Source: a virus
DNA: 48,214 nt
Reading direction: 5' to 3' (one strand)
Virus record (IMG/VR): IMGVR_UViG_3300006131_000280
Shown here: piece after piece, positions 3,806 through 37,322 of the stretch
How positions within the stretch are numbered: the stretch's first letter is position 1
How the letters are laid out: the number at the start of each line of letters is the position of its first letter
Position numbers and translations under genes: made by a program
Notes under the pieces: generated by a model
Databases searched by the model: none
What the model was told of the DNA's origin: nothing
The model's input: only the letters and a program-made list of their open reading frames with translations

Positions 3806-5077
3806 ATGGGAGAACTCAGAACAAGAAAACGAGGAAGCAAATGGGAATACTCCTTCGAAGGAGCTCCGGTAAACGGAAAAAGAAAAAGTATATCAAAGTC
3901 TGGATTCCGGACGAAAGCGGAAGCCATTACTGCCGGAACATCAGCTATGAATCAATACAATAATTCTGGTTCCTGCTTTTCCCCAGCTGAATGTAGCATA
4001 TCCGATTATCTGGATTACTGGTTTGATAATTACTGCAAAGTGAACTTAAAGTATAATACTCAAATCGGCTATTTGCAGATCATTGAAAACCATCTGAAGC
4101 CGCGCTTCGGAATATACAAACTCAGGGCATTGACTACTGCGGCAATCCAGGAATACGTGAATGCCTTGAAACTCCAGGGACTGTCCAGAAACTCTGTGAA
4201 AGGTATTCTTTCCGTCCTTTCTGCATCATATGAATATGCCATCGAACCGCTAAATTACATTCAGGATAATCCCTGTCATCGTGTAAAAATACCAAAATTC
4301 GAAAAAAAACCGAAAGAGCGGTATATCATCACGCCGGAAGAGTTTAACCAAATCATCGCCAGATTCCAGGAAGGAAGCAGCTTCTATATTCCAATCATGA
4401 TTGGATATTACACCGGGCTCCGGATCAGCGAGGCCTTTGCGCTCACCTGGGAGGACATTGACTTAAAAAACAGAACTCTCACCGTCAATAAAACTGTAGT
4501 CAAACGGAATTATGGGGTTGACGTAAGAAAAGTTGCCAGTCAGAAGGGCAAGAAAGAAGAAAAGTCTGCGTGGTACTTTAGCACTCCGAAAACAGAAAGC
4601 TCCAACCGTACAATAAAATTCGGGGATGCCTTATATTCTGCCCTGAAACATGCACAAACCGTACAGAAAAAGAACCGGCTCCAGTATGGCGAGTATTATA
4701 CAGAGCATTACCTGAAACCTGAAAAGGACGAAAAAGGGAACACGATTTTCCGCATCATTCCTGTAGCACGCTGTGTTAATTGTGCCTTAAAACAGGTAGA
4801 TATGGTATGCGTCCGTGAGAATGGGGAATATATAAGCACGGATTCCATGAAATACTGTAACCGGGTCATTCATAATGAACTTAAGCTGGCTTTTGACTAC
4901 CATTCTCTTCGCCACACGCACGCGACGATATTAATTGAAAATGGCGCTGACATCAAAGATGTCCAGGCCAGGCTCGGACATTCTGATATCAGCACCACAC
5001 TGCAAATCTACACCCATGCAACGGACAAAATGTCCATGAAAAGTGTCGATATTTTTGAAAAGGCTGTCAATATCTGA
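3806..5077 (+). CDS. int: Tyrosine recombinase (phage integrase)
   Basis: N-terminal arm-binding-type segment ([11 protein letters not shown]...GFRTKAEA). Catalytic motifs [31 protein letters not shown]. Confidence 0.92.
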
Positions 5078-5080
5078 AAA
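4992..5080 (+). repeat. Direct repeat copy A (int 3' end)
   Basis: 89 nt matching 8737..8825. The first 53 nt are identical, followed by 5 mismatches in 36 nt. Confidence 0.9.
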
Positions 5081-5196: not shown

Positions 5197-5227
5197 ATAT
5201 GCCATAGGTGGTTAACCTATGGCATAT
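5197..5227 (-). terminator. Terminator of the methyltransferase/GHKL operon
   Basis: ATATGCCATAGG-tggttaa-CCTATGGCATAT, 12-bp perfect stem. A T-rich tract follows on the minus strand (tttatactcatttt). Confidence 0.6.
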
Positions 5228-5316
5228 AAAAGAATATATAAATATTTTTTTATTGGTTTAAATTTTAGGCAGACAGAAATCGTCTTCCCTATAATAAGTT
5301 TATCAAGAGGTTGCTT

Positions 5317-5523
5317 ATGAAACAATATAAAACTACATGTATGTATGGCTATTCAATTTTGGGGGAATGCCCACCCAAATTAGATACTCAAACAAATTAT
5401 GTAATTATTGAACAATCTAGGTTTTTCCCACATTGTGTTATTATTCAACGGGCAGACGGTAAAATGTTTCAAGGTGAAAAAACTTGGATTGTTCCGCAAA
5501 GTAGCATATCAACCAATCTCTAA
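5317..5523 (+). CDS. Small hypothetical protein (68 aa), uncertain
   Basis: ATG 5317 lies 7 nt after AAGAGG. AT-rich. Its 3' end overlaps the convergent GHKL gene by 15 nt. Confidence 0.3.
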   Translation: MKQYKTTCMYGYSILGECPPKLDTQTNYVIIEQSRFFPHCVIIQRADGKMFQGEKTWIVPQSSISTNL

Positions 5524-7482
5524 TTCGTTAATAATATCACTCAATGTTGATATATTTTTATTTTGCTCCAAGAAATCACTATATAAATTTTGTGCATTTC
5601 TTAAAAGTTCATCATAATACATAATCCGACACTGGTAAGCTTTTAAGGCTTCTTTAGTAGCTTGATATACATCTTCATCATAATGTATTCCATCTAGGTG
5701 ATTCCCCAAGAGGACAATAATTTCAAATGGTTCAGGCTGATCTAAAATAGCCATTACTTTTTTTGTGGCAGAAAAATATTTATATACTTGGGTCGTTATT
5801 TCTTGTGATTTTACCGTCCTATCTCCTTTTTTTAATTCAATTATCAAATGCCTATTAGATGCTTTTTTATATCGAATATCCAGACGGGCATCTAATTCTT
5901 CTTGGGTGAGACCTGCATCTATAGTTTCAAATTGTGTTTTAAACGCTTGTTCTACGATTGGAGCTTCAGTTCCTCTATCCCATGAAGGATCAAGTAGCCA
6001 TAAATTTTTGCTCAAATGGTCTTGTATGACTTTTTCAAGGCTACCATCAGATACGACATCTTGCATTTTTCTGATAACAGCAAGACGCTCTTGCACAATT
6101 TGATAATACATAGTTGCTTCAATATCATCAAGTCGTCCTGCAACTTCTATAAATGTCGCAATATTTTCAGCAGAAATTTTTTCCAATTGGCTTAATTCAT
6201 TTTTTAATTTAAAAGACTCGAAAGCCAACACTCCATGCTTGAATAGTTCTTTTTTCTCTTCTTTTTCAACAGTTAACTGATTGATTTTACCGAATAATTT
6301 TTTTGCAGATCTTTTATCATCTCCTTTCAACTTGTTATACCAGTCGCTTACAACAACATATTTGCACGCCTCATCAACTCCACTAGCGCTTCTGGTTTCT
6401 TCCCAGTCGGTTCGAACTGAAGTAAGACTCTTTCTAACAAACTCTTTTAAAGCGATATAACGTTCATCGTCTTCAAAGAAATCCTGCCTGCTGCTTGTAG
6501 TTATATCTGCTTCATCGTCTAAATCTAAAAAATCCGCAGATAATTCTCCAAAAATATATTTTGAATATAGGGCGGTTGTTCCAATTTCAGAAAAAATATC
6601 TTCTTTTGCCATTTTCCCACGAACCATAATCACAATACGGTTTAAATTTTCATCATCATCTAGTTCCTTTGGCTCTGAGCAGGTAGCAATCCATCCTGTA
6701 ATGCGATAAGAAACTTCTCCAACCGTTATCATAGAGGGTAGTTCCTTTATAAGTTTAATTTTATCTGCTTTGGTTTGATTCTCCAAATCTTTTTTGAATT
6801 CATCAGGCTTATTCTCTGGAAGAAACATCCATACACATTGTGCTTTAGAGAGATAATTTCTATCAGATATGACTATTTCATCACCATTTATTGATACTTT
6901 AAAATCATGTTTTGCACCAATAATTGCAAATCTGCGAGCTAAACGCTGTCTTAAATGCGCCGCCAAAGAAGCAGTTCTTTTTTTCTTAAGATCATTTAAA
7001 ATAATTTTTGTACCATTCTCACAGAAAGTAATATTATCAGGTGATAACTCGGTAGGAAAATATGTATCGTTGGTTTTAATTGCCTCCTTCAAAGAATTGG
7101 TATCAATCTTAAAACCGTTAATTTCTCCATCTTTTTTAGAGTAAACCTCAACAACATTTGCAATTGAAAAAAGGGATAGCTTGCCAATTCCTTTTCTTCC
7201 CATTACTGGTCTATGAAGCATTGGTGACAGACCACTTTCACTACGTTTCTGATAACCTACAGTCAAATATTTATTGTTTATATCAGATAGGTTCATCCCA
7301 ATACCATTGTCAGTAATGGATATACTATCGCCATTAATTTCTATTAATACTTCTTGAGCATCTGCATCCCATGCGTTTGCAACTACTTCGGATAATACTG
7401 CAGAAGTATTGCTATAGAGATTTAATCCCAGATGATTTAATACCTGTAAATTTATAGACATTTGAAATTTTGGTTGATTCAT
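5509..7482 (-). CDS. GHKL (HATPase_c_3/MORC-MutL-type) ATPase fused to a C-terminal PD-(D/E)xK, DUF4263/Shedu-like nuclease domain
   Basis: N box SEVVANAWDA (aa 31-40), G1 DNGIGM (58-63), G2 GRKGIGKLS (95-103). C-terminal HLSKNLWLLDPSW...LDIRY(D535)...IIELKK(E549,K551)...QVYKY. GGGAGG RBS. ATGA overlap with the upstream methyltransferase. Confidence 0.8.
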   Translation of the reverse strand: MNQPKFQMSINLQVLNHLGLNLYSNTSAVLSEVVANAWDADAQEVLIEINGDSISITDNGIGMNLSDINNKYLTVGYQKRSESGLSPMLHRPVMGRKGIGKLSLFSIANVVEVYSKKDGEINGFKIDTNSLKEAIKTNDTYFPTELSPDNITFCENGTKIILNDLKKKRTASLAAHLRQRLARRFAIIGAKHDFKVSINGDEIVISDRNYLSKAQCVWMFLPENKPDEFKKDLENQTKADKIKLIKELPSMITVGEVSYRITGWIATCSEPKELDDDENLNRIVIMVRGKMAKEDIFSEIGTTALYSKYIFGELSADFLDLDDEADITTSSRQDFFEDDERYIALKEFVRKSLTSVRTDWEETRSASGVDEACKYVVVSDWYNKLKGDDKRSAKKLFGKINQLTVEKEEKKELFKHGVLAFESFKLKNELSQLEKISAENIATFIEVAGRLDDIEATMYYQIVQERLAVIRKMQDVVSDGSLEKVIQDHLSKNLWLLDPSWDRGTEAPIVEQAFKTQFETIDAGLTQEELDARLDIRYKKASNRHLIIELKKGDRTVKSQEITTQVYKYFSATKKVMAILDQPEPFEIIVLLGNHLDGIHYDEDVYQATKEALKAYQCRIMYYDELLRNAQNLYSDFLEQNKNISTLSDIINELEIG

Positions 7483-8603
7483 GGCTGTACCTCCCTATGT
7501 TCAGAAACGTATTCAAAATAAAGTCGTATTGCACGTCGAATTTGAGCACGTACAGACGGAACAATATCCTCAAACATGGATTCCTTATTTAATTTCTTTA
7601 AATAATATTCACAATCATCTGTGCCGAATTCTAAAATCCTTTTTGCACGACCTATTCTTGAAAGAGTATCTCCTGCTACTTCTGCAGAAAGTCTTTTTTC
7701 ATTCTTCAACCAATCAATAAACCGCAAGTTATGCAAATCGGTATTTCCTTTAATAAAGTGCATTAAACAAGTTGCTACATAATTAGCCAGGTTGACTGGA
7801 ACTGCATTTCCAATCATTTGTTCTGTTGAAGCAGATGAGTCATCCCAAATAAAACCAGGAGGAAAGGTTTGTATAAGGGAGCGTTCTAGGCAAGATAAGT
7901 TGCGTATTCCATCGGGAGCAATTACATCTCCATTATGCTTTTTATAGTTTCCTGGTTTAGGACGGTTAACGCCTCGTATTGTTGGAGAGGGCTCATCAAC
8001 AGAAAATATACCACGTCGTTTGTATGAACGAGGATGCCGATAATAATATTCTATTGACAAATCGTAATTTTCCTGTCGAAAGTATTCTCTTACTGTTAAA
8101 GGGAAAATGGACTGATTTGTTGATAACAAACCATCTAAAAAACTGTCTTGCCCATTTTTTAATCCAATACAAAAAAATCGCTTCCTCTTCTGAGGAACAC
8201 CGCAAAAACTAGCATCAAGAACTTTTTCTGTTAGCCCATACCCAGCCTCTTTAAAAATTACTCTTGCCTTTTTATATGCATCACTACTAGCTGCACGCTC
8301 CACATTTTCCATTACAAAATATTGGGGAGAAATTGCCTTTATTATTTTTGCATATGAAACAGTTAAATCTGCGCGATCTCCTTCAACTCTATTTCCTGCT
8401 CCAGAAAAATCTTGACAAGGAGGTCCCCCTATTATAATATCAGGATTATATTTTATGATATTCTGGACGGAAAGCTGTACATCTGAGAGGTCAATATCTT
8501 CAACCGGATGTGCGAAATTTTTCTTATAGCAAGAGATAGCAACATCCCAATGCTCAAATCCTGCCAAAATGTCAAATCCTGCTTTTTGAAAACCTAATGA
8601 CAT
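7479..8603 (-). CDS. DNA (cytosine-5) methyltransferase; the coding frame continues upstream to about 8645 without a canonical start
   Basis: Motif IV GGPPCQDFS, VI ENV, VIII QKRKRFF, X GNAVPV. Motif I (DLFCGCGG) is encoded in frame at 8604..8627, upstream of the first ATG. Confidence 0.85.
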   Translation of the reverse strand: MSLGFQKAGFDILAGFEHWDVAISCYKKNFAHPVEDIDLSDVQLSVQNIIKYNPDIIIGGPPCQDFSGAGNRVEGDRADLTVSYAKIIKAISPQYFVMENVERAASSDAYKKARVIFKEAGYGLTEKVLDASFCGVPQKRKRFFCIGLKNGQDSFLDGLLSTNQSIFPLTVREYFRQENYDLSIEYYYRHPRSYKRRGIFSVDEPSPTIRGVNRPKPGNYKKHNGDVIAPDGIRNLSCLERSLIQTFPPGFIWDDSSASTEQMIGNAVPVNLANYVATCLMHFIKGNTDLHNLRFIDWLKNEKRLSAEVAGDTLSRIGRAKRILEFGTDDCEYYLKKLNKESMFEDIVPSVRAQIRRAIRLYFEYVSEHREVQP

Positions 8604-8677
8604 TCCACCACAACCACAGAATAAATCTACAATGTTAATGTTGATCTCATCCTTTCCACCAGTCTATTTAATGGCTT

Positions 8678-8707
8678 ATTATAACATGCTGAAGTCCGTG
8701 AGCGCAA
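8678..8707 (-). promoter_or_regulatory. Putative promoter of the methyltransferase/GHKL operon
   Basis: On the minus strand: TTGCGC, 18-nt spacer, TGtTATAAT (extended -10). Confidence 0.5.
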
Positions 8708-8736: not shown

Positions 8737-8825
8737 GCACCACACTGCAAATCTACACCCATGCAACGGACAAAATGTCCATGAAAAGTATTGACATTTT
8801 TGAAAGGGCTGTCAACATCTGAAAA
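8737..8825 (+). pseudogene. Integrase 3'-terminal fragment (last 28 codons plus stop), direct repeat copy B
   Basis: Encodes ...[28 protein letters not shown]-stop. Differs from int only by synonymous or conservative changes. No upstream integrase body. Confidence 0.85.
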
Positions 8826-9096
8826 TTCCGTTGACAAAACGTTGACAAAATCCAGTTTCGGGAGGACAAGACCTCCCGAATATCCTTATTTTATGCGGTT
8901 TAGCAGGCATACAGTCTCCACATGCACCGTTTGTAGCTACTTCTATCCAGAACATGTTAATTTATATTATAGCATGTCATATTATGTTTGTAAAATAAGC
9001 ATTCTTTAGGTACATGAAATCATTTTCAATTATACCTTTTTATTATTTTATATACTGATTTTTCCCCAATGTCGACAAATCGTTGACATTGACAAC
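8788..9096. promoter_or_regulatory. Putative attP region with repeated GTTGACA-type (arm-site-like) motifs
   Basis: Tandem CGTTGACAAAA at 8829..8839 and 8840..8850. TTGACATTTT near 8791, inverted GTTGACAG near 8809. GTCGACAAA, CGTTGACA and TTGACAAC at 9071..9096. These flank an AT-rich non-coding core downstream of the int end. Confidence 0.45.
8857..8880 (+). terminator. Hairpin after the integrase fragment
   Basis: TTCGGGAGG-acaaga-CCTCCCGAA, 9-bp stem, followed by T-rich sequence. Confidence 0.55.
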
Positions 9097-9274
9097 ATGA
9101 CTATACTGCAAACCGCCGTTACCTGTATTCTCCCCAGGCTTACTCCTGCCTCCAATTCAATTTCTGTTGCATCTTTTAGGAGCAGATAATTCTTGATTAT
9201 ATTGTAGGATATTTTGATGCGGCGGTTATACCCACTTAAAGCAAGAGAGCGGTGGCAAGTCCCGCTCTCTTGTT

Positions 9275-34993: not shown

Positions 34994-35188
34994 TTACTTT
35001 TGTTTCTCGATAAAATCCTTCATCATTTTTGACAGCTGTGCAGCCTGGCTCACTCCCGCTCTGTCACAAGCATCCGCAAACTGGTCTACTACTTCACGCT
35101 TTAGCTTATACGATTTCGACATTAACCCTGCCTTTTCCTCATACTTTTTCGTCGCAATTGTTTGTGGTTTGGGGTTTCCTACTGGCAT
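34994..35188 (-). CDS. Ribbon-helix-helix (Arc/CopG-like) small protein
   Basis: ATG 35188 lies 6 nt after GGAGGG. KSYKLKREVVDQFADACDRAGVSQAAQLSKMMKDFI is RHH-like. Confidence 0.65.
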   Translation of the reverse strand: MPVGNPKPQTIATKKYEEKAGLMSKSYKLKREVVDQFADACDRAGVSQAAQLSKMMKDFIEKQK

Positions 35189-35284
35189 CTTTTGTCCCTC
35201 CACATCTCAAGCAAGCCGATTCCTGATTTAACGACTGCCAACACGATAAAGAACGTGCCCAAAAATTTCAATGCATTTGCCATA

Positions 35285-35314
35285 TTGATTTTATACAGAT
35301 GAGTGTGTTATAAT
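35285..35314 (+). promoter_or_regulatory. Strong promoter of the antisense sRNA
   Basis: TTGATT, 18-nt spacer, TGtTATAAT (extended -10). Confidence 0.65.
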
Positions 35315-35320
35315 ATTAGT

Positions 35321-35450
35321 TAAGAGAAGGGCTTACGCCCCTCTCTGCTACTCAAGTAGCTTTGAAATAAGCAGTAGGATAACTCCTACTACTAAGTCCG
35401 TTAGCACTCCGACCAGCCAAGTCTTAAGTTTGCTATCGGACTTTTTCTTT
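35321..35450 (+). ncRNA. Candidate antisense sRNA (type I antitoxin-like), about 130 nt
   Basis: Starts downstream of promoter 35285..35314. Four hairpins: GAGAAGGGC/GCCCCTCTC, GCTAC/GTAGC, AGTAGGA/TCCTACT, and GTCCGTTAGCA/TGCTATCGGAC followed by TTTTTCTTT. Fully complementary to CDS 35348..35467. Confidence 0.55.
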
Positions 35451-35467
35451 CGGCTTTCGCCTCTCAT
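35348..35467 (-). CDS. 39-aa membrane peptide (type I toxin-like)
   Basis: Hand translation: MRGESRKKKSDSKLKTWLVGVLTDLVVGVILLLISKLLE. AAGGAGGTGA lies 7 nt upstream of the ATG. Consensus promoter upstream. Confidence 0.6.
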   Translation of the reverse strand: MRGESRKKKSDSKLKTWLVGVLTDLVVGVILLLISKLLE

Positions 35468-35492
35468 CTGTATCTCACCTCCTTATGATTGT

Positions 35493-35521
35493 ATTATATC
35501 ATAAGGTGCACCATATGTCAA
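35493..35521 (-). promoter_or_regulatory. Perfect-consensus promoter of the peptide mRNA
   Basis: Minus strand: TTGACA, 17-nt spacer, TATAAT. Confidence 0.7.
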
Positions 35522-35540
35522 GCTCTTTTACTTTTATCTG

Positions 35541-35573
35541 GGTAAAGAAAAGAGATGGCGCAGGGCCATCTCT
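35541..35573 (-). terminator. Terminator of the AT-rich two-gene operon (T tracts on both sides)
   Basis: AGAGATGGC-N5-GCCATCTCT, followed by TTTCTTT on the minus strand. Confidence 0.65.
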
Positions 35574-35576
35574 TTT

Positions 35577-36041
35577 TTATTCTTCAACTATGAATCCATA
35601 CGACGCCACCAATTTACTATCATCCATATTATTAATATCTCCTGCGTCTTCCTCTGTTACTGGTTCTTCGTATTTATATACAACTAACTCATAATTTCCT
35701 GCTCCTGGCAAATATGCATCCTTGAAAAAAATGTTTGATATCTTCTGTGACGAACCATCATATCTGCTTTTTCCTAGTGCACTTTTTAAACTATCTGCTT
35801 TCTCATAATCAATTCTTCCCAACGATACCGCTTTATCGTCATCATTATCCCCTATCTTTATCAAAAATAATAAAAGAGTAAAATGTTTAGATAAATAATT
35901 TATTGTATTAATTAGAACAAATACAGTAAAGGATAATTTATTATCAAATATTCTTATTTTATCAAATATAGATGTTATATTGCTTGTAGAAGTTACTTCT
36001 CCCTCACATAACAAAATATTTATGTTAAATCTACTTTCCAT
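35577..36041 (-). CDS. Hypothetical protein (154 aa), AT-rich accessory gene B
   Basis: Track ORF. 11-nt overlap with the upstream gene. No recognisable motif. Confidence 0.65.
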   Translation of the reverse strand: MESRFNINILLCEGEVTSTSNITSIFDKIRIFDNKLSFTVFVLINTINYLSKHFTLLLFLIKIGDNDDDKAVSLGRIDYEKADSLKSALGKSRYDGSSQKISNIFFKDAYLPGAGNYELVVYKYEEPVTEEDAGDINNMDDSKLVASYGFIVEE

Positions 36042-36576
36042 TTGTATCCACTCTCCAGTCTTTATTAGTAATTTTATTTTTCATATTAGTACGATGTGGG
36101 GTATATGCGTCTTTACCTGTCATAGTTCCCATCTTTTTTGCTGTCTCTTCAGCTGTCTTTCCCGGTAAATCGTCAATCTTGCTCTGCAAATCACTCAAAC
36201 TAGCATTTAACTGATTAATATTACTTTCAATCCCTTCATTGATACCAGCTATTGACACTACTGTTTTATCTAATTCTTTCGCTGTCATTTCAATTTGCTC
36301 TTTAATATGTTCCGTTTTCCCCTCTCCTGTGATACTTAAAATTATTGCTAAAACAGACAATATTATTGAAGTTATTGTGCCTGCAAATGATACCCATTCT
36401 GGAAATTTTGGATGACTTGCCGTTTTAGTAGCTATCATCCATACAATAATTGCTATTGCAATACAAGATATGTAGCGCATATGTAATTTTATTCTCTCAT
36501 TTTCTAACTTTAAATTATATTCGTCGAATGTTTTAGGCACTTCTTTGCATTCACTACATTTCTTAAATCCAAACAT
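36031..36576 (-). CDS. Hypothetical two-TM membrane protein with coiled-coil C-terminus (181 aa), AT-rich accessory gene A
   Basis: TM segments ISCIAIAIIVWMIATKTA and VSFAGTITSIILSVLAIILSI. GGAGGG RBS. Confidence 0.7.
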   Translation of the reverse strand: MFGFKKCSECKEVPKTFDEYNLKLENERIKLHMRYISCIAIAIIVWMIATKTASHPKFPEWVSFAGTITSIILSVLAIILSITGEGKTEHIKEQIEMTAKELDKTVVSIAGINEGIESNINQLNASLSDLQSKIDDLPGKTAEETAKKMGTMTGKDAYTPHRTNMKNKITNKDWRVDTNGK

Positions 36577-36623
36577 AATAGTTTCCCTCCAATTTTATGT
36601 AAATTATCCTATCACAAAATCCG

Positions 36624-36656
36624 ACAAAAGAAAAGCACCTATCTATCGACAGGCGC
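36624..36656 (-). terminator. Terminator downstream of the tRNA-like element
   Basis: Minus strand: GCGCCT-N10-AGGTGC followed by TTTTCTTTT. Confidence 0.5.
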
Positions 36657-36685
36657 TTATTAAGGGGAGAAAATATTGTAACAAA

Positions 36686-36738
36686 CGGCAGCTCCAGGAG
36701 TCGAACCTGGTTCCAGGGCGTCACCCTGGCCATCTGCC
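36686..36738 (-). ncRNA. tRNA-like element lacking a D arm (anticodon-like loop GUGACGC)
   Basis: GGCAGAT-GG-CCAGG-GTGACGC-CCTGG-AA-CCAGG-TTCGACT-CCTGG-AGCTGCC-G. The T arm is canonical. The acceptor pairs at 6 of 7 positions. No D arm and only a 2-nt variable region. Confidence 0.3.
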
Positions 36739-36845
36739 CTGAATGGTGTGCTTCGATATTACCTAGCGGAGTCTCGGACTGTAAAGCGGGGGAGAGGAGC
36801 CCCCGGTTGCTTGCCTTTGGCTCCCATAATACACTCTACCAAATT

Positions 36846-37322
36846 TTATCGGGACATTGGGGGACATTTGCAAATTTTTTCAAAAAATCTTTGTCTTCGC
36901 TTCTTCACATTTTCATCCGTATACTTAATTTTCCGCTTTGGGAATATCTGATTCATCCGGTCGGCCACCTTGGCATCACTTAATCCGTCGATAAAATACA
37001 GCCGAAACATGATTCGAAGCTCTGCTTTCGGAATCGTTTCTATGTACTCCTCCGCCTGACAGGTCAGCTCTAAGAGCTCTGCCTCCTTTGCCTCCAGCCG
37101 CTTCCGGTATCGTTCCCGCAGTCCATACTTCCGGTAGTATTCCGGATTTGGGATACCGGAGATCTTGATCGGTCCAATCGTTCCGTCTCTTCGGGTCCCC
37201 CGTACGGTATCTGACACAATCGGAGGGTTCTGCAGGAACCGGTCCAACTTCTTGATTCGCTCCCTTAAATCTTTAATCTCTTCCATAAAGTCACTGTATT
37301 GGACTAATATGTTCTGGTCCAC
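36846..37322 (-). CDS. ArpU/RinA-type late transcriptional regulator (sigma-70 region-4-like HTH)
   Basis: C-terminal MFRLYFIDGLSDAKVADRMN is HTH-like. It sits in the usual position upstream of the packaging module. Confidence 0.6.
   Translation of the reverse strand: MDQNILVQYSDFMEEIKDLRERIKKLDRFLQNPPIVSDTVRGTRRDGTIGPIKISGIPNPEYYRKYGLRERYRKRLEAKEAELLELTCQAEEYIETIPKAELRIMFRLYFIDGLSDAKVADRMNQIFPKRKIKYTDENVKKRRQRFFEKICKCPPMSR

Follow-up and report, generated by a model that had tools for sequence, protein, structure and literature searches.

A BbrUII/HgiDII-family methylase-nuclease cassette, probably a restriction-modification module, carried by a temperate phage between its attP and int

Family membership of the methylase-nuclease pair

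Nucleases with an N-terminal GHKL (Bergerat-fold) ATPase domain have been described under several names. The GHKL N-terminus of the Herpetosiphon enzyme R.HgiDII was already described in 2008 (PMC2441816), and M.HgiDII is an experimentally characterised 5-methylcytosine methylase with the target GTCGAC (PMC5867850). The other namesake of the family, R.BbrUII, comes from Bifidobacterium breve UCC2003. The BbrII methylase gene was essential in a transposon-sequencing study of B. breve, whose authors inferred that the nuclease is active in vivo (PMC5514069), and plasmid methylation raises transformation in further work on this system; these BbrII facts come from later papers, which partly contradict each other. 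The paraMORC3 proteins combine a GHKL and an S5 domain with a C-terminal restriction-endonuclease (RE) fold carrying an E-D-ExK motif series, and they occur in restriction-modification contexts (PMC2292703). Among the N-terminal classes of Shedu, Gu et al. (2025), who defined the type I-D class, list HATPase_c_3 plus a middle domain. The Vibrio cholerae protein VcSduA, a GHKL domain joined to DUF4263, protects against phage more than 10,000-fold, and the defence is lost with E27A or K557A (PMC12137116). Adams et al. (2025) equate the VcSduA architecture with both paraMORC3 and Shedu type I-D (PMC12137116), and none of the papers searched names both HgiDII and Shedu. Here, a gene pair of this kind, a C5 methylase followed by a 657-amino-acid (aa) nuclease, is analysed in the IMG/VR virus record IMGVR_UViG_3300006131_000280, a stretch of 48,214 nucleotides (nt) referred to below as the window. 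An original prediction, made from the letters alone, had read the pair as an uncharacterised defence operon whose nuclease is Shedu-like. The cassette and its signals are as follows.

5509..7482, minus strand: restriction endonuclease gene (657 aa) of the BbrUII/HgiDII family (NF050001, PADLOC REase_II, PHROG 6203)
7479..8639, minus strand: C5 cytosine DNA methyltransferase gene (about 386 aa; PF00145, PADLOC MTase_II)
8678..8686, minus strand: extended -10 promoter TGtTATAAT of the methylase-nuclease operon (read from the sequence)
8650..8657, minus strand: Shine-Dalgarno-like GGAAAGGA ahead of the methylase start (likewise read directly)
5197..5227, minus strand: terminator-like 13-bp hairpin ending the methylase-nuclease transcript (hairpin scan and inspection)

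Searches with the 657-aa protein showed that it belongs to a family that already has a name. It matched the NCBIfam equivalog NF050001 with 769.1 bits (cutoff 550, E 4.1e-231), and the alignment of residues 6 to 654 with profile positions 1 to 659 of 659 runs end to end. PADLOC called it a type II restriction endonuclease (REase_II, 2.4e-99), and PHROG 6203, which PHROGs labels as of unknown function, matched at 9e-166. The full-length NF050001 match and the PADLOC calls mean that the nuclease is not uncharacterised, and this part of the original prediction falls, since paraMORC3 was named in 2008, in the paper that the prediction itself cites, and VcSduA has been tested experimentally. The cassette is therefore a further member of the BbrUII/HgiDII restriction-modification family and not a new kind. 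Among the candidates scored, 6774 matches to the nuclease were found. The C-terminal domain alone gave 455 clusters at the 50% level, nearly all of them of proteins of 640 to 690 aa, and the family extends over bacteria and archaea, with multiple copies in some sponge-symbiont genomes. For example, four paralogues of the nuclease occur within a single sponge-associated genome of an uncultured Cenarchaeum (OY282369.1: L043, L061, L073, L080) and three in a metagenome-assembled Latescibacteria genome (OY282377.1: L038, L046, L072). The top match among GenBank phages was a protein of the P2-like Escherichia coli phage PhiR44_1 that is annotated "ParaMORC3" (35.6% identity over 98% of the query) and whose gene adjoins one for a "Dcm protein." Because this protein itself scores 751 bits on NF050001, the names HgiDII/BbrUII, paraMORC3, and GHKL-Shedu appear to cover one family.

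The partner gene encodes a C5 methylase, as indicated by PF00145 (DNA_methylase, 1.8e-57), by the PADLOC MTase_II model PDLC03270 (4.7e-119), and by the motifs DLFCGCGG (I), GGPPCQDFS (IV), MENVE (VI), QKRKR (VIII), and GNAVP (X). The predicted overlap of the two genes was recovered: in the list of open reading frames (ORFs), the ATG of the 657-aa ORF and the TGA of the methylase share 4 nt (ATGA), and the predicted translational coupling to a C5 methyltransferase is borne out. The TGtTATAAT element that had been proposed as the cassette's own promoter is present at 8686..8678 on the minus strand and is kept in three diverged loci (L001, L011, L013), where TGnTATAAT stands at the equivalent spot 5′ of the methylase; it is absent from the output of the consensus promoter scan because it has no -35 match. 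For the proposed terminator, the likely counterpart is the 13-bp hairpin at 5227..5197 (minus strand). The G+C content of the cassette is 33 to 37% versus 44 to 51% over most of the phage.

The linkage of methylase and nuclease was surveyed by tblastn for a C5 methylase at 80 loci from species-representative genomes. A C5 methylase was found on the same strand no more than 300 nt upstream at 53 of the 80 loci and within 1.5 kb upstream at 9 more, so that at least 62 of 80 have it upstream on the same strand; at 2 loci it lies downstream. Every locus inspected through gene calls has a C5 methylase directly upstream. This order, methylase then nuclease, is held from 100% down to about 37% nuclease identity, in bacteria and archaea. 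Because methylase linkage is a family rule, the original framing of the protein as a Shedu-type single-gene sensor nuclease, even though its domain content stands in part, fits less well than plain restriction-modification. At one relative (L143, 4695-6667), the nuclease gene is broken into pieces of 439 aa and 130 aa, the methylase and a small convergent gene described below are intact, and transposase genes lie nearby. A dead nuclease beside an intact methylase is the usual decay route of such systems, and this state was counted for the restriction-modification reading.

Domains of the nuclease

The 657-aa protein was divided into four parts by profile matches and an AlphaFold model (mean predicted local distance difference test score [pLDDT] for the whole protein, 78.5).

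6973..7461, minus strand: GHKL (Bergerat-fold) ATPase domain, aa ~8-170 (HATPase_c_3, 8.4e-18)
6478..6972, minus strand: middle (transducer/S5-like) domain, aa ~171-335 (AlphaFold model, Foldseek)
6043..6477, minus strand: all-helical linker, aa ~336-480 (secondary structure of the model, pLDDT 54 to 85)
5512..6042, minus strand: PD-(D/E)xK nuclease domain, aa ~481-657 (remote SduA_C match, motif order, model)

All the motifs on which the original prediction was built stand at the residues it gave: SEVVANAWDA at 31 to 40, DNGIGM at 58 to 63, GRKGIGKLS at 95 to 103, HLSKNLWLLDPSW at 489 to 501, LDIRY at 534 to 538 (D535), IIELKK at 547 to 552 (E549, K551), and QVYKY at 565 to 569. Their residues are invariant in 61 homologues of 55 to 96% identity, which means that the motifs are not due to chance. 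The N-terminal motifs correspond to E32/N36 (I), D58xGxG (II), G95xxGxG (III), and G157-T158 (IV), and E32, N36, D58, G60, G62, G95, G98, G100, and T158 are invariant in the same 61 sequences. The call of a GHKL ATPase holds both by profile and by structure. In Foldseek, the whole protein matched TRAP1, Hsp90, GRP94, MORC2, and MORC3 at E values of 4e-12 to 2e-10. These alignments span 400 to 450 columns, which is the N-domain plus the middle domain in the N-terminal two thirds of the protein, and the full-length output held GHKL and middle-domain matches only. At the sequence level, the whole protein matched only Hsp90-type N-domains in the PDB, and matches to MutL models were weak, covered only the N-terminal ~110 residues, and were far under their cutoffs. 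The middle domain (pLDDT 82 to 93) carries an invariant loop, VRGKMAK, with K290 and K293.

The C-terminal domain contains E511 (I), D535 (II), E549-x-K551 (III), and Q565 (IV). Across 27 diverse C-terminal domains, there is no variation at D, ExK, and Q, and E511 is conserved to at least 90%; the models place these residues in the order helix(E511)-strand(D535)-strand(ExK)-helix(Q565)-strand. The order E-D-ExK-Q is that of Shedu motifs I to IV. Consistent with this, the closest Pfam family is SduA_C (PF14082); the score, however, is 15.1 bits for the whole protein and 22.3 bits (1.6e-4) for the isolated domain, below the gathering cutoff of 27. Thus, of the two Pfam domains that had been predicted, HATPase_c_3 was confirmed (8.4e-18) and PF14082 stayed under its threshold. 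Among relatives, SduA_C matched at E<0.01 in 29 of 61 close and 11 of 27 diverse ones, and a precomputed PF14082 match exists for two homologues. PDDEXK_4 was matched by 7 of the 27 diverse domains, with single matches to Mrr_cat and NucS_C. The PADLOC run called REase_II and MTase_II, and no SduA model matched the whole protein (E<=0.1) or the isolated C-terminal domain (E<=0.01); among the 27 diverse domains, the three SduA models had one match each (6e-4 to 6e-3), and a few relatives matched SduA, LmuA, or Cas4 models.

In the comparison of structures, likeness to MORC was seen for the N-terminal part, and no Shedu chain was among the top 50 PDB matches of the C-terminal model. The weak PDB matches of the latter included cap-snatching endonucleases and XisH. 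Against BFVD, the best match (8.8e-4) was an uncharacterised protein, accompanied by weak matches to restriction endonucleases and Mrr, and a profile of the 27 diverse domains aligned its D...ExK segment with the BpuSI nuclease (E 0.2) in a search of PDB sequences. Such weak matches tilt toward PD-(D/E)xK nucleases and are not evidence on their own. The Shedu/DUF4263-like assignment of the C-terminus thus stands in a weaker form, as a probable remote homology to a PD-(D/E)xK domain for which Shedu is the nearest relative, and the 657-aa protein is not filed as a Shedu member.

Phage context, methylase start, and a small convergent gene

The window is a temperate phage, with an S24-peptidase repressor, an integrase, a CHAP endolysin, a terminase, and a DUF927 replication protein. 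The cassette lies between attP and int, the moron position assigned to it originally.

3806..5077, plus strand: tyrosine integrase gene (Phage_integrase Pfam match on the identical-length gene in L006-L009; XerC/XerD-type NCBIfam)
4992..5080, plus strand: left copy of an 89-nt direct repeat, the true int 3′ end including the stop codon (repeat search)
8737..8825, plus strand: right copy of the same repeat, left over from the 3′ end of int (repeat search)
8857..8925, minus strand: attP core mimicking the 3′ end of a host rlmCD-like (RNA uracil-5 methyltransferase) gene (identity with L006, end of a scaffold)

The two copies of the 89-nt repeat are 94% identical, lie 3745 nt apart, and bracket the cassette. 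This duplication of the int end is likely the scar of an insertion or exchange of the cassette. The attP core contains a terminator hairpin (8880..8857) and was placed by two observations. First, identity between the window and an integrated form (L006) starts at about 8925, inside a copy of the host gene 3′ end and its terminator. Second, an isolate scaffold (JBCLRB010000021.1, Lachnospiraceae bacterium 45-P1) has its first base precisely at window position 8924. Integrated copies show the host rlmCD-like gene followed by the methylase, the nuclease, int, and the repressors, in this order. The exact nuclease protein is present on at least 23 contigs, and relatives are carried by a conjugative element in C. 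scindens, by 43 plasmids, and by 46 IMG/VR viral contigs. Searching GenBank phages by megablast with 22 kb of the phage gave no match, exact-pattern scans of viral and metagenome contigs gave no int-attP junction lacking the cassette, and the integrase protein had no exact record.

Some further observations concern the same region and related loci. A promoter-like TTTACA-17-TATAAT with TG (11/12) at 8966-8994 on the minus strand, on the phage side of attP, points toward the 8880-8857 hairpin and could give a transcript of about 100 nt through the att core in the circular form only. Repeats resembling TTGTCAAC, TGTCAA, and TGTCGAC flank the att core (8760-8880 and 9060-9100) and may be arm-type sites of the integrase; one of the only two GTCGAC sites of the window, at 9071, falls in this area. 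A second low-G+C island at 35000-37000 (36 to 38% versus about 48%), with minus-strand ORFs at 35577-36041 and 36031-36576 that have no Pfam match, may be another moron. Among the relatives, L011 is a Mob_Pre plasmid or element whose defence island holds an NgoMIV-type system, Vsr, and an OLD-like ATPase, and L010 lies in a defence island with a second HATPase_c_3 protein (687 aa), Vsr, and an AspBHI-like/Mrr enzyme.

The extent of the methylase needed correction. The 374-aa ORF (7479..8603) listed for the gene begins at the first ATG, which falls within motif I; DLFCGCGG lies 5′ of it, and motif I is inside the protein only if translation begins at a noncanonical codon. In the window, L016, L018, and L001-5, the stretch from the in-frame stop to motif I has no ATG, GTG, or TTG, and in L013 the sole codon of these types is a TTG one codon before motif I. 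The start-lacking methylases form a clade 64 to 100% identical to that of the window. Other family loci have an ATG 8 to 12 codons before motif I. Because GGAAAGGA lies 10 nt upstream of the ATT at 8639, and L001 has GGAAGGAGGAG at the same place, translation probably starts at this ATT, with ATC 8645 and ATT 8633 as candidate alternatives, and the gene is given here from that codon. The gene call of the C. scindens homologue in its NCBI record also begins at ATT. A conserved weak start codon may keep translation of the methylase low or regulated. A frameshifted methylase pseudogene was considered as well, given a short ATG ORF (MRSTLTL*) in another frame just upstream, and was rejected because the startless state is conserved in the clade together with the frame, the ribosome-binding site (RBS), and the promoter. 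At its other end, the methylase extends past motif X by about 85 aa (7479-7742, minus strand). This extension is helical, is absent from the PADLOC model (309 positions), gave insignificant family matches only, and is also present in the C. scindens homologue.

About 280 nt separate the nuclease stop from the terminator. This stretch is not an empty 3′ untranslated region (UTR), as it carries a gene on the opposite strand.

5317..5523, plus strand: conserved 68-aa gene of unknown function (translation, homologues, hmmsearch)
5266..5295, plus strand: promoter-like TAGGCA-18-TATAAT followed by the RBS AAGAGG, for the small gene (consensus scan, 10/12; a consensus match only)

The small gene runs toward the nuclease gene, and the 3′ ends of the two share 15 nt. 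Since the terminator lies beyond it, the 3′ UTR of the nuclease mRNA would be antisense to the whole small gene. Homologues occur in the same place and orientation in L001, L006, L010, and L013 and at the same position in L142-L144, and the gene, encoding a protein of about 65 aa, is present in all Firmicutes-type loci examined (at 16 loci, hmmsearch gave 1e-13 to 2e-43). Loci of other phyla, at about 40% identity, gave no match to it. Its family comprises 84 protein clusters, none of them named, and no match was found in Pfam, PHROG, or NCBIfam. A weak homologue also stands alone, near the terminase gene of a phage (L145).

Alternative readings and comparison with known systems

Taken together, the findings make it very probable that the cassette, which a temperate Lachnospiraceae phage carries as cargo between attP and int, works as a type II-like restriction-modification system of the BbrUII/HgiDII family. 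At this locus, the analysis showed membership of the family, the identity of the domains, catalytic residues that are intact, a conserved link between methylase and nuclease, and carriage as mobile cargo. Restriction in vivo (BbrUII) and a need for the ATPase and nuclease residues (VcSduA) would carry over from published work on relatives. In such a system, the methylase would mark a specific short DNA motif with 5-methylcytosine, so that the DNA of the lysogen and the prophage within it count as self; the motif of the family prototype M.HgiDII is GTCGAC. The 657-aa protein would dimerise through its ATP-bound N-domains into a clamp, by analogy with MutL, MORC, Hsp90, and VcSduA, and its C-terminal nuclease (D535, E549, K551) would cut DNA carrying the unmethylated motif. 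ATP gating, the dimeric clamp, and the recognition sequence are predictions for this protein drawn from its relatives.

Several points weigh against this interpretation. No C5 methylase was found by tblastn at 12 to 16 of the 80 loci surveyed (16 in the tally that also gave the counts above), although closer inspection revealed one at no fewer than two of these negative loci and an N4/N6-type methylase near one of them. The C-terminal fold was assigned from sequence matches under threshold and from the order of the motifs: Foldseek of the isolated C-terminal model (pLDDT 77) against the PDB gave nothing significant (best, Nt.BspD6I, E 0.023), Shedu chains were not among the top 50 PDB matches, and the profile of 27 diverse domains found nothing significant among PDB sequences. 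The literature on the relatives is also uneven. No biochemistry on any BbrUII/HgiDII family member was found in it, in vitro activity of R.BbrII was never shown according to the B. breve authors (PMC5514069), M.BbrUII had a small added effect on the transformation of one plasmid, and one paper calls M.BbrUII an N6-adenine methylase, in conflict with PMC5867850. Finally, the partner methylases are of two clusters. Those of the window, L011, and L013 belong to the PDLC03270 cluster. At the haloarchaeal and P2-like loci, the methylase is of the DrmMII/PDLC03378 type, with a target-recognition region that cannot be aligned with that of the window. This means that GTCGAC specificity is not to be assumed for the window. 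Its GTCGAC count (2 versus 3.4 expected) is uninformative on specificity, and no 6-bp palindrome was significantly depleted across the 48 kb.

One alternative is that the protein acts alone as a Shedu type I-D immune nuclease, with a GHKL domain that responds to a signal of infection and a methylase that is unrelated or co-travelling. SduA_C as the nearest Pfam family of the C-terminal domain, the N-terminal class of Gu et al., the function of VcSduA as a stand-alone gene in a paper that does not mention a methyltransferase, and the family loci in which the C5 methylase went undetected would all fit. However, the two genes form a single unit whose translation is coupled by the ATGA overlap, and the methylase-then-nuclease order is kept in bacteria and archaea alike, at nuclease identities from 100% to about 37%. 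The essentiality of the BbrII methylase is what a cognate pair predicts, and the protein misses the SduA_C threshold and all PADLOC SduA models. A stand-alone Shedu nuclease is thus judged improbable here. Lower still is the probability of a decaying or silent cassette, in which the methylase has lost its start codon and no active form is made. The startless state is kept throughout a clade of 64 to 100% identity along with the frame, the RBS, and the extended -10, which argues for ATT or ATC initiation, and the ATT start given to the C. scindens homologue agrees with this. Neither ORF is truncated or lacks a catalytic residue, the exact nuclease recurs on at least 23 contigs, and selection would act against an intact nuclease whose methylase no longer works. 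The lack of ATG, GTG, or TTG before motif I, the gene callers' choice of starts downstream of it, and the disrupted nuclease gene of L143 are the observations that this explanation would account for.

Iyer et al. stress a parallel to the MutL-Vsr pair (PMC2292703), the GHKL domain has weak MutL matches, and Vsr genes adjoin some family loci (L010, L011, L052). These facts could suggest that the pair repairs T:G mismatches arising from deaminated 5-methylcytosine in the manner of MutL and Vsr and does not attack foreign DNA. Yet Vsr and a mismatch-recognition domain are both absent from the window, catalogues list the family under restriction enzymes, essentiality of the methylase in B. breve implies a toxic partner, VcSduA protects more than 10,000-fold against phage, and phages, plasmids, and defence islands all carry the gene. 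Of all the readings, repair is the one least to be expected, and its probability is very small.

With the restriction-modification reading preferred, a broader one may be put forward tentatively, although it is doubtful as a whole. HgiDII/BbrUII (the type II enzymes of REBASE and NCBIfam), paraMORC3, and GHKL-Shedu type I-D would be one family treated in three bodies of literature that do not refer to each other, the large GHKL-Shedu clade would act mostly by methylation-controlled and probably ATP-gated restriction and not as a stand-alone sensor nuclease, and the Firmicutes three-gene module (ATT-initiated methylase, nuclease, and ~65-aa protein) could set the balance of methylase to nuclease on entering a new host. 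If the family is one and ATP-gated, this could explain why R.BbrII activity went unseen in standard ATP-free assays. Apart from this, R.HgiDII had a nuclease fold without assignment in 2008 that can now be read as a Shedu-like PD-(D/E)xK domain, and the labels "GHKL-Shedu" and "paraMORC3" appear to denote the same family as a classical restriction enzyme. For the host, the cassette would be one more prophage-borne restriction-modification system, illustrating how temperate Lachnospiraceae phages may arm gut bacteria against phages and plasmids, and strains that carry it would be harder to transform. Modest leads on the regulation of a toxic pair come from the small convergent gene and from the probable methylase start at ATT.

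Comparison with the known systems places the cassette as follows. With MutL, MORC, and Hsp90, the protein shares the Bergerat fold and a transducer domain, but it has neither the MutL C-terminal endonuclease nor the chaperone C-domain and carries a fused PD-(D/E)xK domain instead. Canonical SduA (Bacillus cereus, E. coli) has the same motif order E, D, ExK, Q and a WLxDP-type segment before the core; it differs in having another N-terminal sensor, in being a tetramer, and in being a single-gene system, whereas the window nuclease is translationally coupled to a C5 methylase with conserved linkage. VcSduA, compared by its description, has the same GHKL ATPase, clamp-like middle domain, and DUF4263-type PD-(D/E)xK domain, and its E27 and K557 lie at nearly the same positions as E32 and K551 here. 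Unlike the window protein, which also falls under the PF14082 threshold, it acts alone, and a methylase is unmentioned in the paper. Likeness to paraMORC3 includes the GHKL and S5/transducer domains, the C-terminal RE fold with E-D-ExK, and the association with a DNA methylase; the equivalence rests on an annotation label and a hidden Markov model (HMM) score rather than on the sequence list of the original paper. The paraMORC3 proteins of Iyer et al. are mainly from proteobacteria and Bacteroidetes and partly stand-alone, whereas the window protein is from Firmicutes and coupled to a methylase. The closest agreement is with the BbrUII/HgiDII enzymes, namely, end-to-end homology over the curated cutoff, the GHKL N-terminus, and a C5 methylase directly upstream, a likeness established through the family HMM and not through the R.HgiDII or R.BbrUII sequences. 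What distinguishes the cassette from them is its PDLC03270 methylase, whose motif may therefore not be GTCGAC, its carriage by a phage, its ATT-type start, and the additional small convergent gene.

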